DNA from: Alphaproteobacteria bacterium | GTDB taxonomy: Bacteria; Pseudomonadota; Alphaproteobacteria; CBDDJK01 | Direction: 5' to 3' | NCBI GenBank assembly: GCA_965229675.1 | Contig: OZ245897.1 | Span: 1,274,699 to 1,338,698 of the forward strand | DNA: 64,000 nucleotides | Shown here: positions 9,250 to 53,776 of the stretch, one piece after another | How positions within the stretch are numbered: the stretch's first letter is position 1 | Layout of the letters: every line of letters begins with the position of its first letter | Made by a program: the position numbers and the translations under genes | Notes under the pieces: generated by a model | The model's input: the letters and a program-made list of their open reading frames with translations, nothing else | What the model was told of the DNA's origin: nothing | The model's database searches: none

Positions 9250-10689
9250 TTATTTATTTATATCTACAAATACTTTTCGTTTTATTTGATTGTCTTTTAG
9301 AAAACGTTTTAAATCTTGATGAATTTTGGCAACAACCTGCTTCCAATCGCCTAGGGTAGGTTGACGGTAAAGCTTTAAAGAAGGATACCATGGGGTATCT
9401 TCACGCTCCAGCTGCCACCGCCAATCAGGTTTATAGGCCAAAAGCCCCCAAACAGGAAGATTAAGATTCGCCGAAATATGTAATAGCCCCGTATCAACTG
9501 TGATGACAAGATCACAAAAGGTAAGAATTGCAGCAGCATCGGTAAAATCATGCAATCGATCTGGTAATATATATAGATTGTCACGGGATTGCGCGAAATC
9601 ATAATCAGATTGTCGCAAATCAGGCTGGATTAATAAAAATGCGGCATCTTCATCAAACAATGGTGCCATTACTTCAAGAGAAGCAGAACGCGCCCGATCA
9701 TTTGGATGGCCTGGATTACCTGTTGGTATAATGGCAATGCGCTTTTTATGTTGTGCCTTCCCCAACAAATCATTTATTTTTTCTTTCCATTTGGTGATAA
9801 AAGCCTCTGGTGATTTGATTGGATAAGGAGGGGGGATATCTTTTTCTTGCTCGATTCCAAATGCTACTGGCAAAGACCCTACTGGACAATAATAATCAAT
9901 ATTTTTAAACTGTTTGGGCTTGAGTAATACCTCGTCAATTATATCTGCATGCTGAAAATAGCTGCAAAGTCCAGAAAATCCACCATAAAATCCAAAAATC
10001 AAATGCGCTCCCATCTGTTTTAACTTAGGTAAGTAGCGTACAAATTGAACGGTATCGCCTACGCCTTGCTCATTCATCAATAAAATTTGCTTACCCTTAA
10101 TATCCGAAATATCACTTAAAATAGGAATATTCTTTTGATCCAATTGCCGTTTTACTTCCAACGTTGGGCTTAGTTGCATCATAGAATTATGCCAACGAAA
10201 TTCAAATTGTTGAAACCCTGTTTTAAGATCTCCTAGTAATAAACGCAGGATTGAACTATTAAACTTTATCACCCCATCATTAGGGGATAGGGAAAGTGCC
10301 TTATCATAAATCGCACATGCTGCCATATGATATCCTTTTTCCACAAGCGTAAGCGCATATTTCCCCCAAACATCCCCTTCCATAGGGTAGGTGCGTAAAT
10401 AAATCTCATAATCACGCAAGCTATCATCCAATCGTCGCATTTCATAATATAAATAACCACGATTTTTATAGGCACTTAAAAAATCAGGATTTAATTTAAG
10501 CGCATGATTGACCGCCTGTTCAGAAGCCTCATACTCCTTAAGCTGTCCAAGTACGGTTGAAAGATTATTATATCCTTTATAATCCTCTGGATTTTGCTCA
10601 ACCCAAGCTTGAAGGATCGTTTTAAGTTCAGGGTAACGTTTTTGGCGTTCTAAGGTTTTAATATCATAGGTTTTTGTAACCATTAGCAA
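9250..10689 (-). CDS. TPR-repeat protein with glycosyltransferase family 9-like C-terminal domain
   Basis: N-terminal TPRs; EQGVGDTVQFVRY, DLVITVDT, DWRW...PWYPS motifs. Confidence 0.85.
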   Translation of the reverse strand: MLMVTKTYDIKTLERQKRYPELKTILQAWVEQNPEDYKGYNNLSTVLGQLKEYEASEQAVNHALKLNPDFLSAYKNRGYLYYEMRRLDDSLRDYEIYLRTYPMEGDVWGKYALTLVEKGYHMAACAIYDKALSLSPNDGVIKFNSSILRLLLGDLKTGFQQFEFRWHNSMMQLSPTLEVKRQLDQKNIPILSDISDIKGKQILLMNEQGVGDTVQFVRYLPKLKQMGAHLIFGFYGGFSGLCSYFQHADIIDEVLLKPKQFKNIDYYCPVGSLPVAFGIEQEKDIPPPYPIKSPEAFITKWKEKINDLLGKAQHKKRIAIIPTGNPGHPNDRARSASLEVMAPLFDEDAAFLLIQPDLRQSDYDFAQSRDNLYILPDRLHDFTDAAAILTFCDLVITVDTGLLHISANLNLPVWGLLAYKPDWRWQLEREDTPWYPSLKLYRQPTLGDWKQVVAKIHQDLKRFLKDNQIKRKVFVDINK

Positions 10690-11479
10690 TCCCTATTGCA
10701 TGTGGGGTAAATTGTTGTTCGAATAGTGGCGTGTAAGAAAGCTCCATATCAGCACACAGAATTGACAATAAATCCAGCTGATCAAGCAAATGAAGGGCGC
10801 GTTGCACTGCTTCTGGGCAATTTAAGTCAAAAAATCGTTGCCATTCTTGAACCCTTAATCTTTTTGGTAATTGATGCAAGCCATGGTTAAGGCACTCATG
10901 TGACTTGAAAATCAAAGGGGAGTGACAATCAAACTTTGCGTGAAAACGGATATAACGTAACAGGCGTAACCAATCTTCTTTTATGCGTTGTTGCGGATTG
11001 CCAATAAAATGAATTTCTTTATTCTTTATTGCCTCAATTCCATGATGGAAATCGTCTATTAAGCCATTAACATCGGCATAAAGGGCGTTAAATGTAAAAT
11101 CACGACGCATAGAATCTGTTTGCCAATCGGCATAATCGGACGGTGTAAAATCAACCTTTGCGGCGCGACCAAAACAAGCAATATCCTGCCGTAAGCTGGT
11201 AAGGTCATAGCGATAATGCTGACCTTGCACACGCAAAACGCCATAATTAAAATTAAAGGAAGTTACCTTGAAACGATGATCAGATAAGGCTTTGACCATT
11301 GCATCGGGGCGCATCGCAACCGCAATATCTATATCAGGCTTGGCGGATTCCAAGCCCATTAATTGATCCCGAATAACACCGCCCAACAATCGCGCTTTTT
11401 GCCCTGCACCAAAATAATGTAGCAATCGTTGAACTTCTTCAGCATGATCACCAAAGGCCTGATTAAAATTAAATTGCAT
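10664..11479 (-). CDS. cca: CCA-adding tRNA nucleotidyltransferase family protein (short)
   Basis: GGVIRD..DIDI (motif A), RRDFTFNAL (motif B), EDWLRLLR (motif D). Confidence 0.8.
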   Translation of the reverse strand: MQFNFNQAFGDHAEEVQRLLHYFGAGQKARLLGGVIRDQLMGLESAKPDIDIAVAMRPDAMVKALSDHRFKVTSFNFNYGVLRVQGQHYRYDLTSLRQDIACFGRAAKVDFTPSDYADWQTDSMRRDFTFNALYADVNGLIDDFHHGIEAIKNKEIHFIGNPQQRIKEDWLRLLRYIRFHAKFDCHSPLIFKSHECLNHGLHQLPKRLRVQEWQRFFDLNCPEAVQRALHLLDQLDLLSILCADMELSYTPLFEQQFTPHAIGIANGYKNL

Positions 11480-48638: not shown

Positions 48639-49595
48639 TTATCGCAAAATACGACGGGTCAACCGCCCGTCAACAATGATCAAACCAAACATAATCAGCC
48701 CTAATCCCAACCATTCATTTAAGGTTAAGGATTCATTCAGAAAAATTGCGCCAAGTGCCATCGCGCTTAACGGCACAAGCATGGTTACCAAAGTTGTGTT
48801 GGTTGCGCCCACCAAAGATAATAATTTAAAATAAATCAAATAAGCCATCGCCGTACAAAAAACCGCAAGCGTTAATAAGCTAAATAATGGATTAAGCGTC
48901 ATATCAAGCAAAGTTGGGATTAGGCTTAACAGTCCATCCGAAAAAATAATAATTCCTAGCGTCAAAACAAATGTGGAAGCCGTAAGCTGTCCAGTAGCGG
49001 CCATAATCGGCTTAATGCCTTGTTTTGCAAAACGCCGTCCCCATATCGCCGCCATTCCATAAGCAAAAGAGGCACCAAGGCAAGCTATCATTCCTTCAAT
49101 ACGTGAGAAATCCAAAGCATTGCCAGCAGGCAGAAGCATCAATATAACCCCCATAAAAGCCGTAATGATGCCAAGCAACTTGCCAAGATGAATCCGATCA
49201 TCATCAGTAAATAAATGGCCAAAAATTAAAGCAAAGAACGGTGTTGTTGCGTTTAAAATCGCTGCAAGTGAACCACTAATCTGACTTTGTCCGAATGAAA
49301 GCAAATAAAAAGGAATGGCATTATTTAAAATTCCCATGATTAAGCAGGTTTGCCAAAACGCAGTATTTTTAATGGGAATAGGAATGCGATAGACTAAACA
49401 AACGATCCATAAAGTAACAGCCGCAAAGCCAACGCGATAGAAAACTAGATATAAGGGCGGCAAGACCTCCACCACAACTTCAATAAAATAAAATGATCCA
49501 CCCCATATAAAAGATAAAAATCCTAATAATAGCCAACCAAAAAGGGACACAGACTTTTGACTGGGGGATAAATCAGGTGTTGCGCTTGGTTTCAT
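48639..49595 (-). CDS. DMT/EamA family transporter
   Basis: About 10 TM, WGGSF, NNAIPF, ILNATTP. Confidence 0.9.
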   Translation of the reverse strand: MKPSATPDLSPSQKSVSLFGWLLLGFLSFIWGGSFYFIEVVVEVLPPLYLVFYRVGFAAVTLWIVCLVYRIPIPIKNTAFWQTCLIMGILNNAIPFYLLSFGQSQISGSLAAILNATTPFFALIFGHLFTDDDRIHLGKLLGIITAFMGVILMLLPAGNALDFSRIEGMIACLGASFAYGMAAIWGRRFAKQGIKPIMAATGQLTASTFVLTLGIIIFSDGLLSLIPTLLDMTLNPLFSLLTLAVFCTAMAYLIYFKLLSLVGATNTTLVTMLVPLSAMALGAIFLNESLTLNEWLGLGLIMFGLIIVDGRLTRRILR

Positions 49596-49907
49596 TGAGG
49601 CTTATTCTTTTTTTATTATTAGTTTGATAATTAACCCTCTTAATAAAGGGTCGTTAAGCTATTGTCATTCCGTTTATTGCGTTTTTTGCAAGAAGATGGT
49701 CAGGAAATTATAAGGACGTAGCCTTTGTAGAATGACGGTTTAGAAAAATTTATAAATTTTGAAATTAAAAAAACAAGTAATGGCTATAAAACGAGTACAT
49801 TACATATTTTTCACAACCACTAATTATTACATATAAATAAATTTAAATCTTGTTTTTAAATTTATAGTGGTGTATATGTTGTTAGAGGTAGGAAAACATC
49901 AATATAG

Positions 49908-49926
49908 GTGATAACTAAAAATTATG
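49908..49926 (+). repeat. 19-bp inverted repeat, left copy (GTGATAACTAAAAATTATG), ending in the cfa ATG
   Basis: Exact reverse complement of 52234-52252. Confidence 0.95.
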
Positions 49927-51129
49927 AGCTATTTAGAAGACAAAAAAAATTATAAAGCCCCATCAAAAAAAACATTAGAAATAATGAAAAAACTTATTGG
50001 TGGGGATAATCAGTTAGCATTAAAATGGATGACAAAGGAAAACCAAAATAAAGCTTTAAGTAATGGTTATATAGCAACGCCTAATTTATTTAGATTTTTT
50101 TTGATGGCTTTGAAACCTGACTTTAAGATTCCCCATTATTATGTAAAAGGATATTGGGGATGTAGCTCAAAGCAATTATATCCCCTTCTTAGGGCTTATT
50201 ATAGTAAACAAGATTCTAGGATTATGAAAATTTACAAATTTATCGGTAATAAAAAACTATATCGAGATGGCTATCTTTATAATTTTTTTCCTCATAAAGT
50301 AAAAGAAAATATAGCTTTACATTATAACACAGATCCAGAATTTATGCGTTATATTCTTGATGAAAAGTTAATTTATACTTGCGCATTTTTTGATCACACA
50401 AACCAGACTTTATCCAAAGCTCAAGAAAATAAAATTAATATTGTTTCAGATCGGTTAAATATATCAAGTAGCGACTATGTTTTAGATCTTGGGTGTGGTT
50501 GGGGACAAGCCGCAGAAATGATTGCAACAAATAAGCAATGCCATGTCATGGGACTAAGTATTGCAGAAAAACAAATTAAATATGCCCGTGATAATTGTAA
50601 GACAAAAAATGAGTATATATGCTCAGATTATGCTTTATTAAACGAAAATAAAAAATTTGATAAAATTTACTCAATTGGTATGCTTGAACATATTGGAAAA
50701 AATAAGCATTTAGGATATTTTACAAAGATTGCAAATTTACTTGAAAATAATGGTCAAGCACTTGTTCATTGTATCGTTACGAGTGATTTAAGGGCAACTA
50801 ACGAGTGGATCGATAAAGAAATTTTTCCAGGGGCATATATGCCACAATTACAAGAAATTGTAAGTGCAATTGATAATAGTAAGCTAGAAATAGTACAACT
50901 TTTCACTCATGACAGAATAAATTATTTTACTACCCTCAAAAACTGGCTAAGTAATTTTTATAGTAACCTAGAAAAAATATACGATCATTTATCATTAGAG
51001 ATTAAATCGCATTCTGAACGATGTGAAATCTTAAGATTATGGGAATTTTATTTATGTGGTAGTATGATTGCATTTGATGATAATTTTGGCAGATGCAGAA
51101 ATGTTCAAATTCTTTTAAGGCATAAATGA
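49924..51129 (+). CDS. cfa: Cyclopropane-fatty-acyl-phospholipid synthase-like SAM methyltransferase
   Basis: NIALHY, YTCAFF, AQENK, VLDLGCGWG, SIGMLEHIG, WIDKEIFPG, RLWEFYL; visibly AT-rich. Confidence 0.85.
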   Translation: MSYLEDKKNYKAPSKKTLEIMKKLIGGDNQLALKWMTKENQNKALSNGYIATPNLFRFFLMALKPDFKIPHYYVKGYWGCSSKQLYPLLRAYYSKQDSRIMKIYKFIGNKKLYRDGYLYNFFPHKVKENIALHYNTDPEFMRYILDEKLIYTCAFFDHTNQTLSKAQENKINIVSDRLNISSSDYVLDLGCGWGQAAEMIATNKQCHVMGLSIAEKQIKYARDNCKTKNEYICSDYALLNENKKFDKIYSIGMLEHIGKNKHLGYFTKIANLLENNGQALVHCIVTSDLRATNEWIDKEIFPGAYMPQLQEIVSAIDNSKLEIVQLFTHDRINYFTTLKNWLSNFYSNLEKIYDHLSLEIKSHSERCEILRLWEFYLCGSMIAFDDNFGRCRNVQILLRHK

Positions 51130-52236
51130 TAAAATATTCACGCCTATAACTGCGCTAATTATACTGCTCAGAACAACAGAGGAAAGACTGTAAAGTGCGC
51201 CTATTAGTAAAGCATTGCAATAAGAAATATTCTTGTCACCTTTTTGTTTTACTTTTGAATAAAATGGAATAAAAACTGGTTTTGAACATAAATCTTCTAG
51301 CGTTGTTTTGTTTATTTTAAGATAACTCAGTCTGATTTTTATTTGATAAGATAATTGTAAAAAGAATGCTAAACTAAGAGCCATAAGTAAAACGAAAATT
51401 GTTGGAATAAATACTGTACCAGTAATTAATAGCTGCCCTGGAAAATACACGTTTAAAATACTATTTGCATCATTAGCACCTATGAAAGCATAAGGCCAAA
51501 GTGTGATATCTATAAATAAATAAGCTGTGTTTATAATTTCACCACTGGTTGACAAATTCACAGCCTCATAAGTATCTCTTTTAAAGTACCATAAAAAGCA
51601 CGAAATTACCTGACTAAAAATAAAACAAAAACCCGCAAAAAGTAAATCTTTCATCGTTATTAAAAATATTTTTGAAAGCGATTGGCTTTTGTTTTTAATA
51701 GCAATAATCTGATTAAGATTATTTAAAGAGTATCTTAAGGAAAAAAAGTCAAAAAAGCTATTGCTGAAAACATAGATAATTAAATAAGTAAACAAAGTAG
51801 TCTGGTTTTTTTCATAGCCATAAAAGGTATTTTCTAGCCCTTCAAAGCTCACAGGCCTACATAAAATTACTAGCGAACTGATATAAACCATATATATTGG
51901 TAAAAAGCGTCGAAATATTAGTGTGCTATTTTCGTTTACCCATTCTTGAGTGACATTTTCTTCAGGCGTTTTTTCACGGTTATTTCCGTTATGCCCAAAT
52001 AGGAATAGAATTAGTTTTCTAGGTATCGTGTATATTTGGTTGTAAACACTATCAAGATTTATATATTTTGCAGTTTTCTGATCCTTAATAGAGGATATGT
52101 ATTTATCCATGAGTGAAAGTGGACTTAACAATTTATGAATGAATAAAAAACCTGTGAAAACGAAAACACTCGAAATCATCAGTAAAACATAATAAAAGCC
52201 TTCTAACAGGTCATAAGAGTATAAATCATTAAGCAT
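51115..52236 (-). CDS. Hypothetical polytopic membrane protein
   Basis: 373-aa ORF with about 6-7 hydrophobic segments; 3' end overlaps cfa by 15 bp; AT-rich. Confidence 0.8.
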   Translation of the reverse strand: MLNDLYSYDLLEGFYYVLLMISSVFVFTGFLFIHKLLSPLSLMDKYISSIKDQKTAKYINLDSVYNQIYTIPRKLILFLFGHNGNNREKTPEENVTQEWVNENSTLIFRRFLPIYMVYISSLVILCRPVSFEGLENTFYGYEKNQTTLFTYLIIYVFSNSFFDFFSLRYSLNNLNQIIAIKNKSQSLSKIFLITMKDLLFAGFCFIFSQVISCFLWYFKRDTYEAVNLSTSGEIINTAYLFIDITLWPYAFIGANDANSILNVYFPGQLLITGTVFIPTIFVLLMALSLAFFLQLSYQIKIRLSYLKINKTTLEDLCSKPVFIPFYSKVKQKGDKNISYCNALLIGALYSLSSVVLSSIISAVIGVNILSFMP

Positions 52237-52252
52237 AATTTTTAGTTATCAC
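52234..52252 (-). repeat. 19-bp inverted repeat, right copy (CATAATTTTTAGTTATCAC on +), ending in the membrane-protein ATG
   Basis: Exact reverse complement of 49908-49926. Confidence 0.95.
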
Positions 52253-52258
52253 TAAAAA

Positions 52259-53158
52259 TTATAGTAAAGCGGTGATGTCTGCCTTTTTGATGATTGATTG
52301 TAATTGTGTTGTAGAGACATGGGTATAAATCTCGGTAACGGAGATACTGCTATGCCCAAGTAATTTTTGTACATGGCGGATGTCCACGCCTGTATCTAAT
52401 AAATGAGTAGCTGTGCTATGACGGATCATATGGGGGGTGATGCGACGGCTGATCCCCAGCTCATTTGTTAATTTGTGAATTTGCTCACGTATATAATTTG
52501 GATAAATGATCATTCCTTTTTTATTAATCAGCAAGCTATCTGTGATAGGCCTAAAATTTTTACGCAATTCTAAATAATCAATAAGCAGTCTTTTAATTTT
52601 ACCATTAGTCAAAAACACATGCCGTTCACGATTGCCTTTGCCCTTGATATTAATTTTTTCGTGACAATCATCGATGTCATTGATTGTGATGGCGCATAAT
52701 TCGCTGACACGGATACCCGTAGAATATAAAAGCAACAAAGCAAGAAGCAATGTATGATAGATTAAAACATCATTATGGATATATTTTTTATACGCACAAT
52801 GACGAACCAATTTTGATATAATTTCGGACGATAGATGACGGGGGAGTCTTTTTGGTTGAGTAATCGATAAAAAATTTCGTTTATGAAATGGATTTTGTGT
52901 TATATAATCTTGTTCTTCCAACCAAAAGAAAAATGTTTTCACACAGGCAATCCGCCGTTTAATACTGGTTGGTGCCAGATTTTTAAGGCGCATATGGCGT
53001 AGCCAAATTTCCAAACCTTCTTTTGTAAATAGCTGATCGGTGGCTAAGGATTGTCGATAATCCTTTAAATCTGTTTTATAAGCACGAAGCGAATGGTCTG
53101 ATAATCCTTTATCACGACAATATTGCAAATATAGGTTAACAATTTGATTTTTATCCAT
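52259..53158 (-). CDS. Xer-like tyrosine recombinase
   Basis: Complete catalytic set R (GIRVSEL), K (GKGNRER), HxxR (HMIRHS), H (LLGHS), Y (TEIYTHV); N-terminal core-binding domain (SLRAYKTDL). Confidence 0.95.
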   Translation of the reverse strand: MDKNQIVNLYLQYCRDKGLSDHSLRAYKTDLKDYRQSLATDQLFTKEGLEIWLRHMRLKNLAPTSIKRRIACVKTFFFWLEEQDYITQNPFHKRNFLSITQPKRLPRHLSSEIISKLVRHCAYKKYIHNDVLIYHTLLLALLLLYSTGIRVSELCAITINDIDDCHEKINIKGKGNRERHVFLTNGKIKRLLIDYLELRKNFRPITDSLLINKKGMIIYPNYIREQIHKLTNELGISRRITPHMIRHSTATHLLDTGVDIRHVQKLLGHSSISVTEIYTHVSTTQLQSIIKKADITALL

Positions 53159-53281
53159 AAATTTAGCCCTTTGAAAATTTATTACTTTTCAAAAGGCTTT
53201 AATTTATGCCATGTTATACCGCAAGCTGATATGAAGAAGGGGGTAAAAAATTCTTTTATTTCACTTGGTTTTAATTTTAAA

Positions 53282-53776
53282 TCAGCTTAATTTTATCTCT
53301 TTGATTTGCATTGAAACAATCTTTCCATTGTCTAATGTGTGCGTTCCAAGTTCAATAAAACCATGTTTTTTATGAAAACCAAGGGAGTGTTCGTTAGGAG
53401 GAACCAAATTCATTTCTGCGGCCATCGTCAGGCAATTTCGCTCGTGTGCTAACTTTGCGATATGTGCATATAATTTACCGCCTAGCCCCTTACCTCTTCC
53501 CATTTTGGAGATTACAATTCGGTCTATATAAATAAAGCGGCCTAAACGTTGCTTAAACCAATTGAAATTACCATTTTCATAAGAACATTCCTGTTCCATT
53601 ACTAATATAAACCCAATAATCGCTTCATCTTTTTCTGCAACAATACAATTTGCGCCAATATCAATCAGATGTGTTAGTCTATCAATATCCATAGGACTGG
53701 TAAGCGCAACGACTTCATCATTTAACTTGATGATTGCTGAATAATTTTCTGACATTGCATCGCGAAGGGTAATCAT
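53282..53776 (-). CDS. GNAT family N-acetyltransferase
   Basis: YIDRIVI..GRGKGLG, PPNEHSLGFH. Confidence 0.88.
   Translation of the reverse strand: MITLRDAMSENYSAIIKLNDEVVALTSPMDIDRLTHLIDIGANCIVAEKDEAIIGFILVMEQECSYENGNFNWFKQRLGRFIYIDRIVISKMGRGKGLGGKLYAHIAKLAHERNCLTMAAEMNLVPPNEHSLGFHKKHGFIELGTHTLDNGKIVSMQIKEIKLS

Follow-up and report, generated by a model that had tools for sequence, protein, structure and literature searches.

We analysed a 64,000-nt window (the whole stretch considered here) of the genome of an alphaproteobacterium (GTDB lineage CBDDJK01; assembly GCA_965229675.1, contig OZ245897.1, positions 1,274,699 to 1,338,698), in which two convergent genes, coding for a Cfa-like lipid methyltransferase and for a membrane protein of no described family, lie between two inverted repeats next to a tyrosine recombinase gene. 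The 2.3-kb segment delimited by the repeats exists in both orientations in public sequence data. The start codons of both genes are inside the repeats, this design is conserved at other loci, and the repeats are linked there to one clade of recombinases. We consider it probable, although far from certain, that the locus is a site-specific inversion module, in which the Xer-family recombinase flips a promoterless two-armed cassette and in this way decides which arm is read from the recombinase side. In this reading, the adjacent recombinase would be the catalyst of the inversion, the recombinase-proximal arm would be the expressed one, and a change of membrane lipids or envelope between subpopulations would be the putative outcome. 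An either/or pattern of expression is plausible.

The repeat is the 19-nt sequence GTGATAACTAAAAATTATG, found at positions 49908-49926 (+ strand), with its exact reverse complement at 52234-52252 (arms 100% complementary) and 2307 nt between the two copies. A first-pass annotation of this DNA had reported the repeat pair, the ATGs of two convergent genes at the repeat ends (open reading frames, ORFs, 49924-51129 on the + strand and 51115-52236 on the - strand), an intact R-K-H-R-H-Y tyrosine recombinase whose stop codon (52259-52261) is found 6 bp beyond the right copy, and a block visibly richer in AT than its flanks. All of these claims hold. The ATG of each cassette gene forms the final three bases of its repeat copy. 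When up to three mismatches to the 19-mer were allowed, the window contained three matches. The mean in 100 shuffled sequences was 0.05, and three matches occurred in 0/100. In the whole 2.51-Mb genome, this is the sole inverted pair of its site type with an identical core within 15 kb. The repeat contains a dif-like core, G-ATAA-CTAAAAA-TTAT-G (general form G-ATAA-N7-TTAT), whose spacer CTAAAAA is asymmetric and the same in both copies. When the genome was scanned with a short dif consensus to locate the host's own site, all matches were weak (3-4 mismatches). The GC content is 0.23-0.31 over positions ~49600-52300 and 0.34-0.37 across the recombinase gene, as against 0.40-0.51 in the flanks. 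Because of this difference in base composition, the leader to the left of the cassette, the cassette and the recombinase gene are together taken to be an imported AT-rich island. The coordinates of all features are collected in Table 1.

The two orientations of the segment were found in four public sequencing runs (X1 to X4; two samples of one study), which hold 97-99% of the words of the window. The runs were analysed as contigs aligned on positions 49300-53500, and they represent mixed samples rather than reads from a clone. X1, X2 and X4 each have a contig that covers exactly 49908-52252 (2345 nt, 0 differences), and their contigs stop or start at 49926, 49908, 52252 and 52234. Since a 19-bp repeat alone would not break a contig of a k-mer graph, these breaks indicate that both junction forms are present. 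The inverted junctions themselves were found as 41-nt contigs. One of them runs through 52223-52252 and continues into CTATATTGATG, the reverse complement of 49897-49907; the other starts with TCTAAATAGCT, the reverse complement of 49927-49937, and continues through 52234-52263. The junction predicted in the first-pass annotation (left outer flank, repeat, CTTAATG) is thus present in public contigs, together with its reciprocal. As in an inverton, therefore, two inverted sites share an identical crossover region (19 bp exact), and 41-nt contigs join the segment to its flanks in both orientations, in three of the four runs and in both samples (2/2). In X1, the depth was 4 and 5 at the reference junctions and 2 and 3.36 at the inverted ones, which corresponds to about one-third of inverted segments, at low depth.

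Two other signals in these contigs were set aside. A joint from 50735 to 52773 (side 21) was short-sided (likeness threshold 90, mixed sample) and was taken as a chance join from another organism. Bins of high depth at 50569-50709, 50992-51132, 51697-51837 and 53107-53247 were taken as short matches from other AT-rich organisms because their contigs continue into sequence that differs from the window.

Contigs from a mixed sample are also compatible with orientations that are fixed in sub-strains, and they cannot prove switching within a clone. Two co-existing strains might each carry one orientation as the trace of a past inversion, with no ongoing switching. The samples do contain a second strain, represented by variant contigs with 5 differences per 130 bp and 9 per 115 bp at about one-third of the depth. 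Furthermore, X3, which comes from the same sample as X4, has a single contig that runs through both repeats, and no inverted junction is listed for it; hence, the inverted share is low in that sample. However, the second strain seems to lack the island, as its contig leaves the window at 49687 and the depth of the island in X3 (25.9) equals that of the main strain (23.4-24.4) and not the sum of the two strains. With a second strain that is apparently island-free, both orientations would occur among the carriers of the island. In addition, the cassette contig shows 0 differences whichever run it comes from, samples vary in their share of inverted junctions, and 13 unrelated contigs likewise break at the site. 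We regard fixed strains as quite improbable. A second-strain contig of X3 (49356-49687) departs from the window after 49687, a position that may mark the left edge of the island.

The right repeat copy is enclosed in a perfect 28-bp palindrome (52235-52262; 12-4-12, or 11-6-11) that overlaps the recombinase stop codon. Neither this palindrome nor the dif-like nature of the repeat core had been noted in the first-pass annotation. The third match to the 19-mer, a reversed copy with 3 mismatches at 52245-52263, is the second half-site of this palindrome, which had no counterpart at the other loci with a Cfa/membrane-protein cassette. The reversed half-site is in direct orientation to the left site and would in principle permit excision of the cassette. 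The aligned contigs of the four public runs contained no deletion joint from one site to the other.

The recombinase is composed of a SAM-like N-terminal domain and a Phage_integrase catalytic domain. R150, K174, H243, R246, H269 and Y278 are all invariant in an alignment of 36 relatives, and the nearest solved structures are those of XerC-like/XerA, XerD and XerH proteins. Domains, catalytic residues and best PDB matches all place the protein in the broad Xer family of tyrosine recombinases. It scores below the NCBIfam equivalog cut-offs of both XerC (219.1 bits, cut-off 335.15) and XerD (206.1 bits, cut-off 329.6), which rules out XerC or XerD proper, i.e. the enzymes of chromosome dimer resolution. 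Two further Xer-like genes of the genome, whose products are 30-32% identical to the recombinase, are presumably the housekeeping pair. An integron integrase was also rejected (TIGR02249, 104.5 bits vs a cut-off of 265), the sites being dif-like cores of 15-19 bp and not attC, as was a FimB/FimE-type invertase (PRK09870, 58.7 vs 221; PRK09871, 50 vs 222).

The best relative of the recombinase is 65% identical, on a 1.4-kb contig, and the remaining ones are at most 49% identical. We surveyed 80 genomic loci that encode related recombinases (31-44% identity), five of which have <40 bp of downstream sequence. At 54 of the 80 loci, a core ATAA-Y-N5-R-TTAT is present 18-131 bp (median 27) after the recombinase match, against a background rate of 0.017 per 290 bp, and 48 of these 54 sites have a G directly before ATAA. 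The 7-nt spacer is found in 28 variants among the 54 sites, the commonest being CTAGGAA (20/54). Spacers are identical within each site pair, and the ATAA and TTAT arms are conserved across loci, as would be expected of binding arms that enclose a crossover spacer. A Shine-Dalgarno-type purine triplet is present in 38 of the 54 spacers and is absent from the CTAAAAA of the window. At 31 loci that have a site, the downstream sequence extends for 2 kb or more, and at 24 of these an exact 15-bp partner in inverted orientation follows at a distance of 1.5-6 kb. In 19 of these 24 pairs, an ORF of at least 100 aa begins between -2 and +24 nt from the core at both ends; in Proteobacteria, its ATG is usually that of the site's own TTATG. 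Thirteen contigs end 0-36 bp past the site, which fits assembly forks arising from mixed orientation.

A second architecture was found at five loci (L025, L034, L040, L063 and L071), where the cassette is upstream of the recombinase gene in divergent orientation, and ~140-200 bp separate the near site from the start of that gene. A protein search of plasmids gave five records at 34-36% identity to the recombinase, including one full example (L112, described below). The comparative test proposed in the first-pass annotation was positive: inverted sites are retained at related loci, and homologous cassettes are found there in both orientations. The idea that the gene pair is a one-off curiosity has to be abandoned: the window is one member of a widespread recombinase-plus-cassette family.

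Some loci of the survey have other layouts. In a Butyricicoccaceae locus (L081, 1-5960), two full recombinase copies are part of 1178-bp inverted repeats around a 3.6-kb segment, with the same site type at the inner ends. A Lachnospiraceae locus (L059, 8932-9032 and 14795-14895) has a row of three inverted-repeat pairs, of 39, 31 and 29 bp, in a multi-site, shufflon-like arrangement, and every pair contains a site-like core. The repeat of L019 (8807-8919 / 10599-10711) is 113 bp long, and its distal site includes a copy of the recombinase 3' end; a second system (L024) is encoded 24 kb from it on the same Hyphomicrobium contig.

For both genes, the ribosome-binding region and the ATG fall within the repeat. 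This would also be expected if the repeat were a shared operator, an insertion scar or a duplication of the translation-start region that happens to lie beside an unrelated recombinase. This explanation is contradicted by the presence of both inverted junctions in the sequence data. The linkage of the site to the recombinase clade and the combination of conserved arms with pair-specific spacers also argue against it, and we give it hardly any credence.

The cassettes of the family carry various gene pairs. At least nine loci have a STAND-like AAA ATPase (~824 aa) opposite an ATP-grasp enzyme. Other cassettes pair a PAP2 phosphatase or a CDP-alcohol phosphatidyltransferase with an unknown membrane protein, methyltransferases or a serine hydroxymethyltransferase (SHMT)-like protein with unknowns, a large ATPase with a 2-oxoglutarate oxygenase and a glycosyltransferase, or an AAA protein with a TIR protein (the TIR protein was found in L070). 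The same pair can face either way. The STAND-like ATPase is proximal to the recombinase in L016, L022, L045 and L082, and the ATP-grasp gene is proximal in L035, L048, L058 and L084; similarly, the SHMT-like gene is proximal in L044 and distal in L033, L051 and L064. The example on a complete plasmid is that of pMRAD01 from the type strain Methylobacterium radiotolerans JCM 2831 (L112; NC_010510.1, 401104-405562), with a recombinase, whose stop codon falls within the GATAA arm, and an ATP-grasp/ATPase flip cassette. The products are annotated in that record as recombinase, 'D-alanine--D-alanine ligase' and 'ATP-binding protein', and no inversion feature is annotated.

We also searched for loci with the cassette of the window using an alignment of the membrane protein. 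In 18 of 18 metagenome loci, some of which are split by frameshifts or cut by contig ends, a Cfa-like sequence is convergent to the membrane-protein gene. Loci whose ends are included show a ~2.25-kb cassette delimited by the same sites, with TTATGG at the start of both genes. The contigs of L091, L094, L097 and L103 consist of the cassette alone or stop at a site, that of L093 starts with an inverted copy of the far flank, and several relatives of both cargo proteins are encoded on contigs 2261-2311 bp long, which corresponds to a cassette without flanks. The recombinase is of the downstream type, as in the window, in L101, L103 and L104. It is divergent, at ~135-155 bp from the site, in L092, L093, L095 and the isolate Rhodopseudomonas infernalis HC1 (L063). 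The membrane-protein gene is proximal in the window and in L092, L095, L101 and L103, and the Cfa-like gene is proximal in L093, L104 and L063. In L096 (1119-1218), two back-to-back sites 84 bp apart each start an outward-reading gene; they look like abutting cassettes without a recombinase between them.

Table 1. Features of the inversion locus (positions in the window)
Feature	Position	Strand	Basis or remark
AT-rich leader beyond the distal site	49688..49907	+	GC 0.23-0.26; putative boundary and function
Distal recombination site (left repeat copy)	49908..49926	+	Core plus ATG of the Cfa-like gene; X1, X2 and X4 contigs end or start here
Cfa-like S-adenosylmethionine-dependent lipid methyltransferase, 401 aa, CMAS family	49924..51129	+	Pfam PF02353, E 3.1e-58
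Invertible segment proper	49927..52233	.	2307 bp between the repeat copies; 49908-52252 (2345 nt) is a stand-alone contig in X1, X2 and X4
Polytopic all-helical membrane protein, 373 aa	51115..52236	-	ORF; no described family; AlphaFold model
Proximal recombination site (right repeat copy)	52234..52252	-	Last three bases on the - strand are the membrane-protein ATG
Perfect 28-bp palindrome	52235..52262	.	Proximal site plus second, reversed half-site, overlapping the recombinase stop
Xer-family tyrosine recombinase, 299 aa	52259..53158	-	PF00589 9.5e-38, PF02899 2.6e-11; R-K-H-R-H-Y intact
Recombinase upstream region	53159..53281	-	Presumed promoter for the recombinase and, by read-through, the proximal cassette gene; from gene order

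The GC content of a cassette can differ strongly from that of the adjacent recombinase gene (0.38 vs 0.70 in L056, from Azospirillum sp. B2RO_4, and 0.40 vs 0.62 in L042). This mismatch suggests that cassette and recombinase arrived independently, the cassette perhaps through a double crossover involving both sites. One may go further and propose that the sites serve mainly for the capture or exchange of cassettes by double crossover at a resident recombinase platform, with inversion as a side reaction. The GC mismatch would fit this proposal, as would the highly diverse cargo next to related recombinases with the same core sites, the occurrence of the same Cfa/membrane-protein cassette either downstream of the recombinase or divergent from it, and the CTAGGAA spacer common to 20 of the 54 sites, which would permit exchange between hosts. 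However, no excised circle, empty platform or deletion joint between sites was seen, and capture does not account for gene starts at both ends of the cassette. It is, moreover, compatible with the inversion-module reading and not exclusive of it. As the main role of the sites, we find capture improbable. A comparison with two genomes of the same family, made in search of an empty site, gave relatives of the EamA neighbour at 47-55% identity, and the GNAT neighbour was not found with the query used.

Both activities might be combined in a phylum-spanning flip-cassette platform that captures exchangeable, promoterless two-armed cassettes from other hosts and flips them, integron-like for bistable gene pairs. 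In such a platform, the dif-like sites would carry the ribosome-binding spacer and the start codon, and the population would alternate between the two arms. We put this broader proposal forward tentatively, as the odds are rather against it.

The inversion-module reading, which we favour, implies the following course of events. The recombinase would act on the two inverted dif-like cores that bound the 2.3-kb convergent cassette, with strand exchange in the identical 7-nt spacer. As the sites are inverted, the product would be an inversion that regenerates both of them. Neither gene has upstream DNA of its own in the cassette, the ATG being within the repeat, and thus a flip would replace only the sequence that precedes the site. 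As assembled, the membrane-protein ATG is 22 nt after the recombinase stop codon, with no terminator-like site in between in our scan, and the gene is probably co-transcribed with that of the recombinase, while the Cfa-like gene faces the AT-rich left leader. Inversion would swap the places of the two genes. Across the family, the conserved upstream partner is the recombinase side, by read-through from the 3' end of its gene or through the shared divergent intergenic region. The ORFs of the distal flanks of 23 loci have no mutual similarity and revealed no third conserved component. Because the recombinase side is conserved upstream and the distal flanks are unrelated between loci, the proximal arm is taken to be the expressed one. 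The 3' ends of the two cassette genes overlap by 15 bp, and with such a tail-to-tail overlap without a terminator, transcription of the on-arm would run antisense through the other arm. This antisense brake on the other arm should sharpen the alternation.

We then considered the two cargo proteins. The Cfa-like protein falls under the NCBIfam equivalog cut-offs (197.4 bits vs 600; 187.6 vs 400), and its closest solved structures are cyclopropane-fatty-acyl-phospholipid synthases (e.g. 7qos, 2.5e-41). It belongs to a separate sub-clade of ~70 proteins at 40-50% identity, beyond which identity falls to ~33% with ordinary Cfa. PADLOC gave a methyltransferase-domain match only (mad2, 1.7e-12), with no assignment to a defence system, and no match for the recombinase. 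The membrane protein has no match in Pfam, NCBIfam or PADLOC, and its 59 relatives are all unnamed or 'hypothetical'. Its AlphaFold model, built with the alignment of these relatives, is a confident all-helical fold (pLDDT 80.3, pTM 0.83). A Foldseek search of the PDB with this fold gave no matches at E <= 0.001 (best TM-score 0.24), and the single match in a protein atlas (0.78) is an unnamed cluster and thus uninformative. Profile comparison detected no relation between the membrane-protein family and the unknown membrane proteins of L017, L019 and L056 (probability 0.1-0.2%), and a hidden Markov model of the family had no matches in other cassettes.

The two proteins could also act together. 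The inversion would then be the same, but enzyme and membrane partner would both be made in both orientations, the flip shifting their ratio or regulation. The pair is indeed kept in all 18 metagenome loci. The predicted complex of the two proteins was given 'weak support', with a score of 0.56 vs 0.00 for the best control (0.56, 0.00 and 0.61 in three runs; contact agreement of at least 0%, partner pLDDT of at least 63); in the calibration, scores of up to 0.60 comprise 7 of 80 solved complexes and both passing mismatches (2/110), and unless there is a good prior, a pass in this band is more likely to be false than true. The weak predicted contact, if real, would favour joint action over a strict either/or alternation. 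The leader at 49688-49907 probably belongs to the imported island, and this island-type AT-rich DNA of ~220 bp beyond the distal site could hold a promoter of its own. It would then be a second entry for expression, and possibly an outside expression signal for whichever gene faces left. Some other loci likewise have 100-200 bp of low-GC DNA beyond the distal site, and at 15 of 23 related loci the first crude ORF past that site reads inwards, toward the cassette, so that the distal arm may be transcribed.

Together with the X3 assembly and the mixed, two-strain nature of the samples discussed above, these observations weigh against the inversion-module reading. Three further results belong on the same side of the balance. 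A simple promoter scan found no sigma-70-like match on the + strand of the left leader; its 19 matches do not exceed the mean of 22.3 in shuffled sequence; and seven of the 31 loci with a site and sufficient downstream sequence have no exact partner site, although one of them, L044, has a near-copy. As to joint action, cassettes with unrelated cargo share the convergent arrangement and the promoterless starts, which is difficult to reconcile with it because an operon would suffice, and the unrelated distal flanks provide no conserved second site of expression. We therefore consider joint action unlikely, although it deserves to be kept in mind.

Alternation of two opposed genes by Xer-type inversion is a principle already described in Ureaplasma and Mycoplasma, according to the available text of the published accounts. 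In Ureaplasma parvum, the opposed ORFs mba/UU376 and UU172/UU171 are alternately expressed via inversion at short inverted repeats, and XerC (UU222) binds the repeats and drives inversion in a surrogate host. The UU172 repeat begins with ATAA-TTTAAA-TTATC, an arm type of the form ATAA...TTAT as found here, with a spacer of 6 nt instead of 7 nt. In contrast to the present locus, where the recombinase gene is adjacent, no such gene is reported beside the Ureaplasma loci in that text. Also, one Ureaplasma repeat is inside a coding sequence and gives rise to chimeric genes, whereas the repeats here end in both ATGs. The Ureaplasma cargo consists of surface antigens of a host-associated mollicute, whereas here an enzyme faces a membrane protein and the family extends across several phyla.

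At the Vpma locus of Mycoplasma agalactiae, inversion brings silent genes to an expression site, and the vsa/HvsR system of M. pulmonis is similar. The available description of Vpma indicates that the xer1 gene adjoins the variable locus and that its disruption locks phase. Vpma is a multigene family of related lipoproteins with several sites, whereas the locus described here has one cassette, two unrelated arms and two sites. With XerC/XerD-dif and with XerS, XerH and XerA, the present system shares the recombinase fold, the catalytic residues and short inverted arms around a central spacer. However, the outcome of XerC/XerD-dif recombination is dimer resolution, whereas two inverted sites that flank cargo yield inversion.

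Plasmid pdif modules use the XerC and XerD of the host; they are not known to have a dedicated adjacent recombinase gene or sites that hold gene starts. In Acinetobacter, they are described as cargo bounded by inverted dif-like sites, with XerC/D-mediated rearrangements (PMC9947245, in the part available). We rejected a pdif module for the present locus: although it has inverted dif-like sites, a dedicated recombinase gene lies beside them, as at 54 of the 80 related loci. Gene-altering programmed inversions such as the hsdS shufflons (Milman et al. 2023) and the invertible promoters found with PhaseFinder also have recombinase-adjacent inverted repeats and generate heterogeneity in the population. 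As far as the accessible text of these studies goes, they swap parts of coding sequences or flip a promoter, whereas here whole promoterless genes would be swapped behind fixed outside signals. The screen of Milman et al. (2023), as described in that text, was restricted to repeats of 22 bp or more, of which one or both had to lie strictly within a coding sequence, and it would thus miss most loci of the flip-cassette class. Our literature search found no description of the recombinase family or of the core motif; the supplementary tables of Milman et al. (2023) and of the intragenic-inverton paper were outside that search and may list such loci.

The family thus appears to be large and undescribed. 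Its new features appear to be the start codon within or directly after both sites, the 7-nt spacer that in many cases would also act as a ribosome-binding site, the enzyme, ATPase and membrane-protein cargo, and the dedicated adjacent recombinase in free-living phyla. Annotation of such loci in metagenome-assembled genomes is probably incomplete, since assemblies are interrupted at the sites. If the proposal is right, free-living Proteobacteria, Actinobacteria and Firmicutes would share a portable platform that alternates two whole genes, and this type of alternation would extend beyond the surface antigens of mollicutes and the specificity domains of restriction systems. The cargo points to switched membrane-lipid chemistry, with Cfa-like, PAP2 and CDP-alcohol phosphatidyltransferase proteins each encoded opposite an unknown membrane protein, and also to switched ATPase/ATP-grasp or TIR modules, which are not classical phase-variable traits. 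A site that holds the translation start, combined with a small single recombinase, could also serve as a compact genetic toggle.

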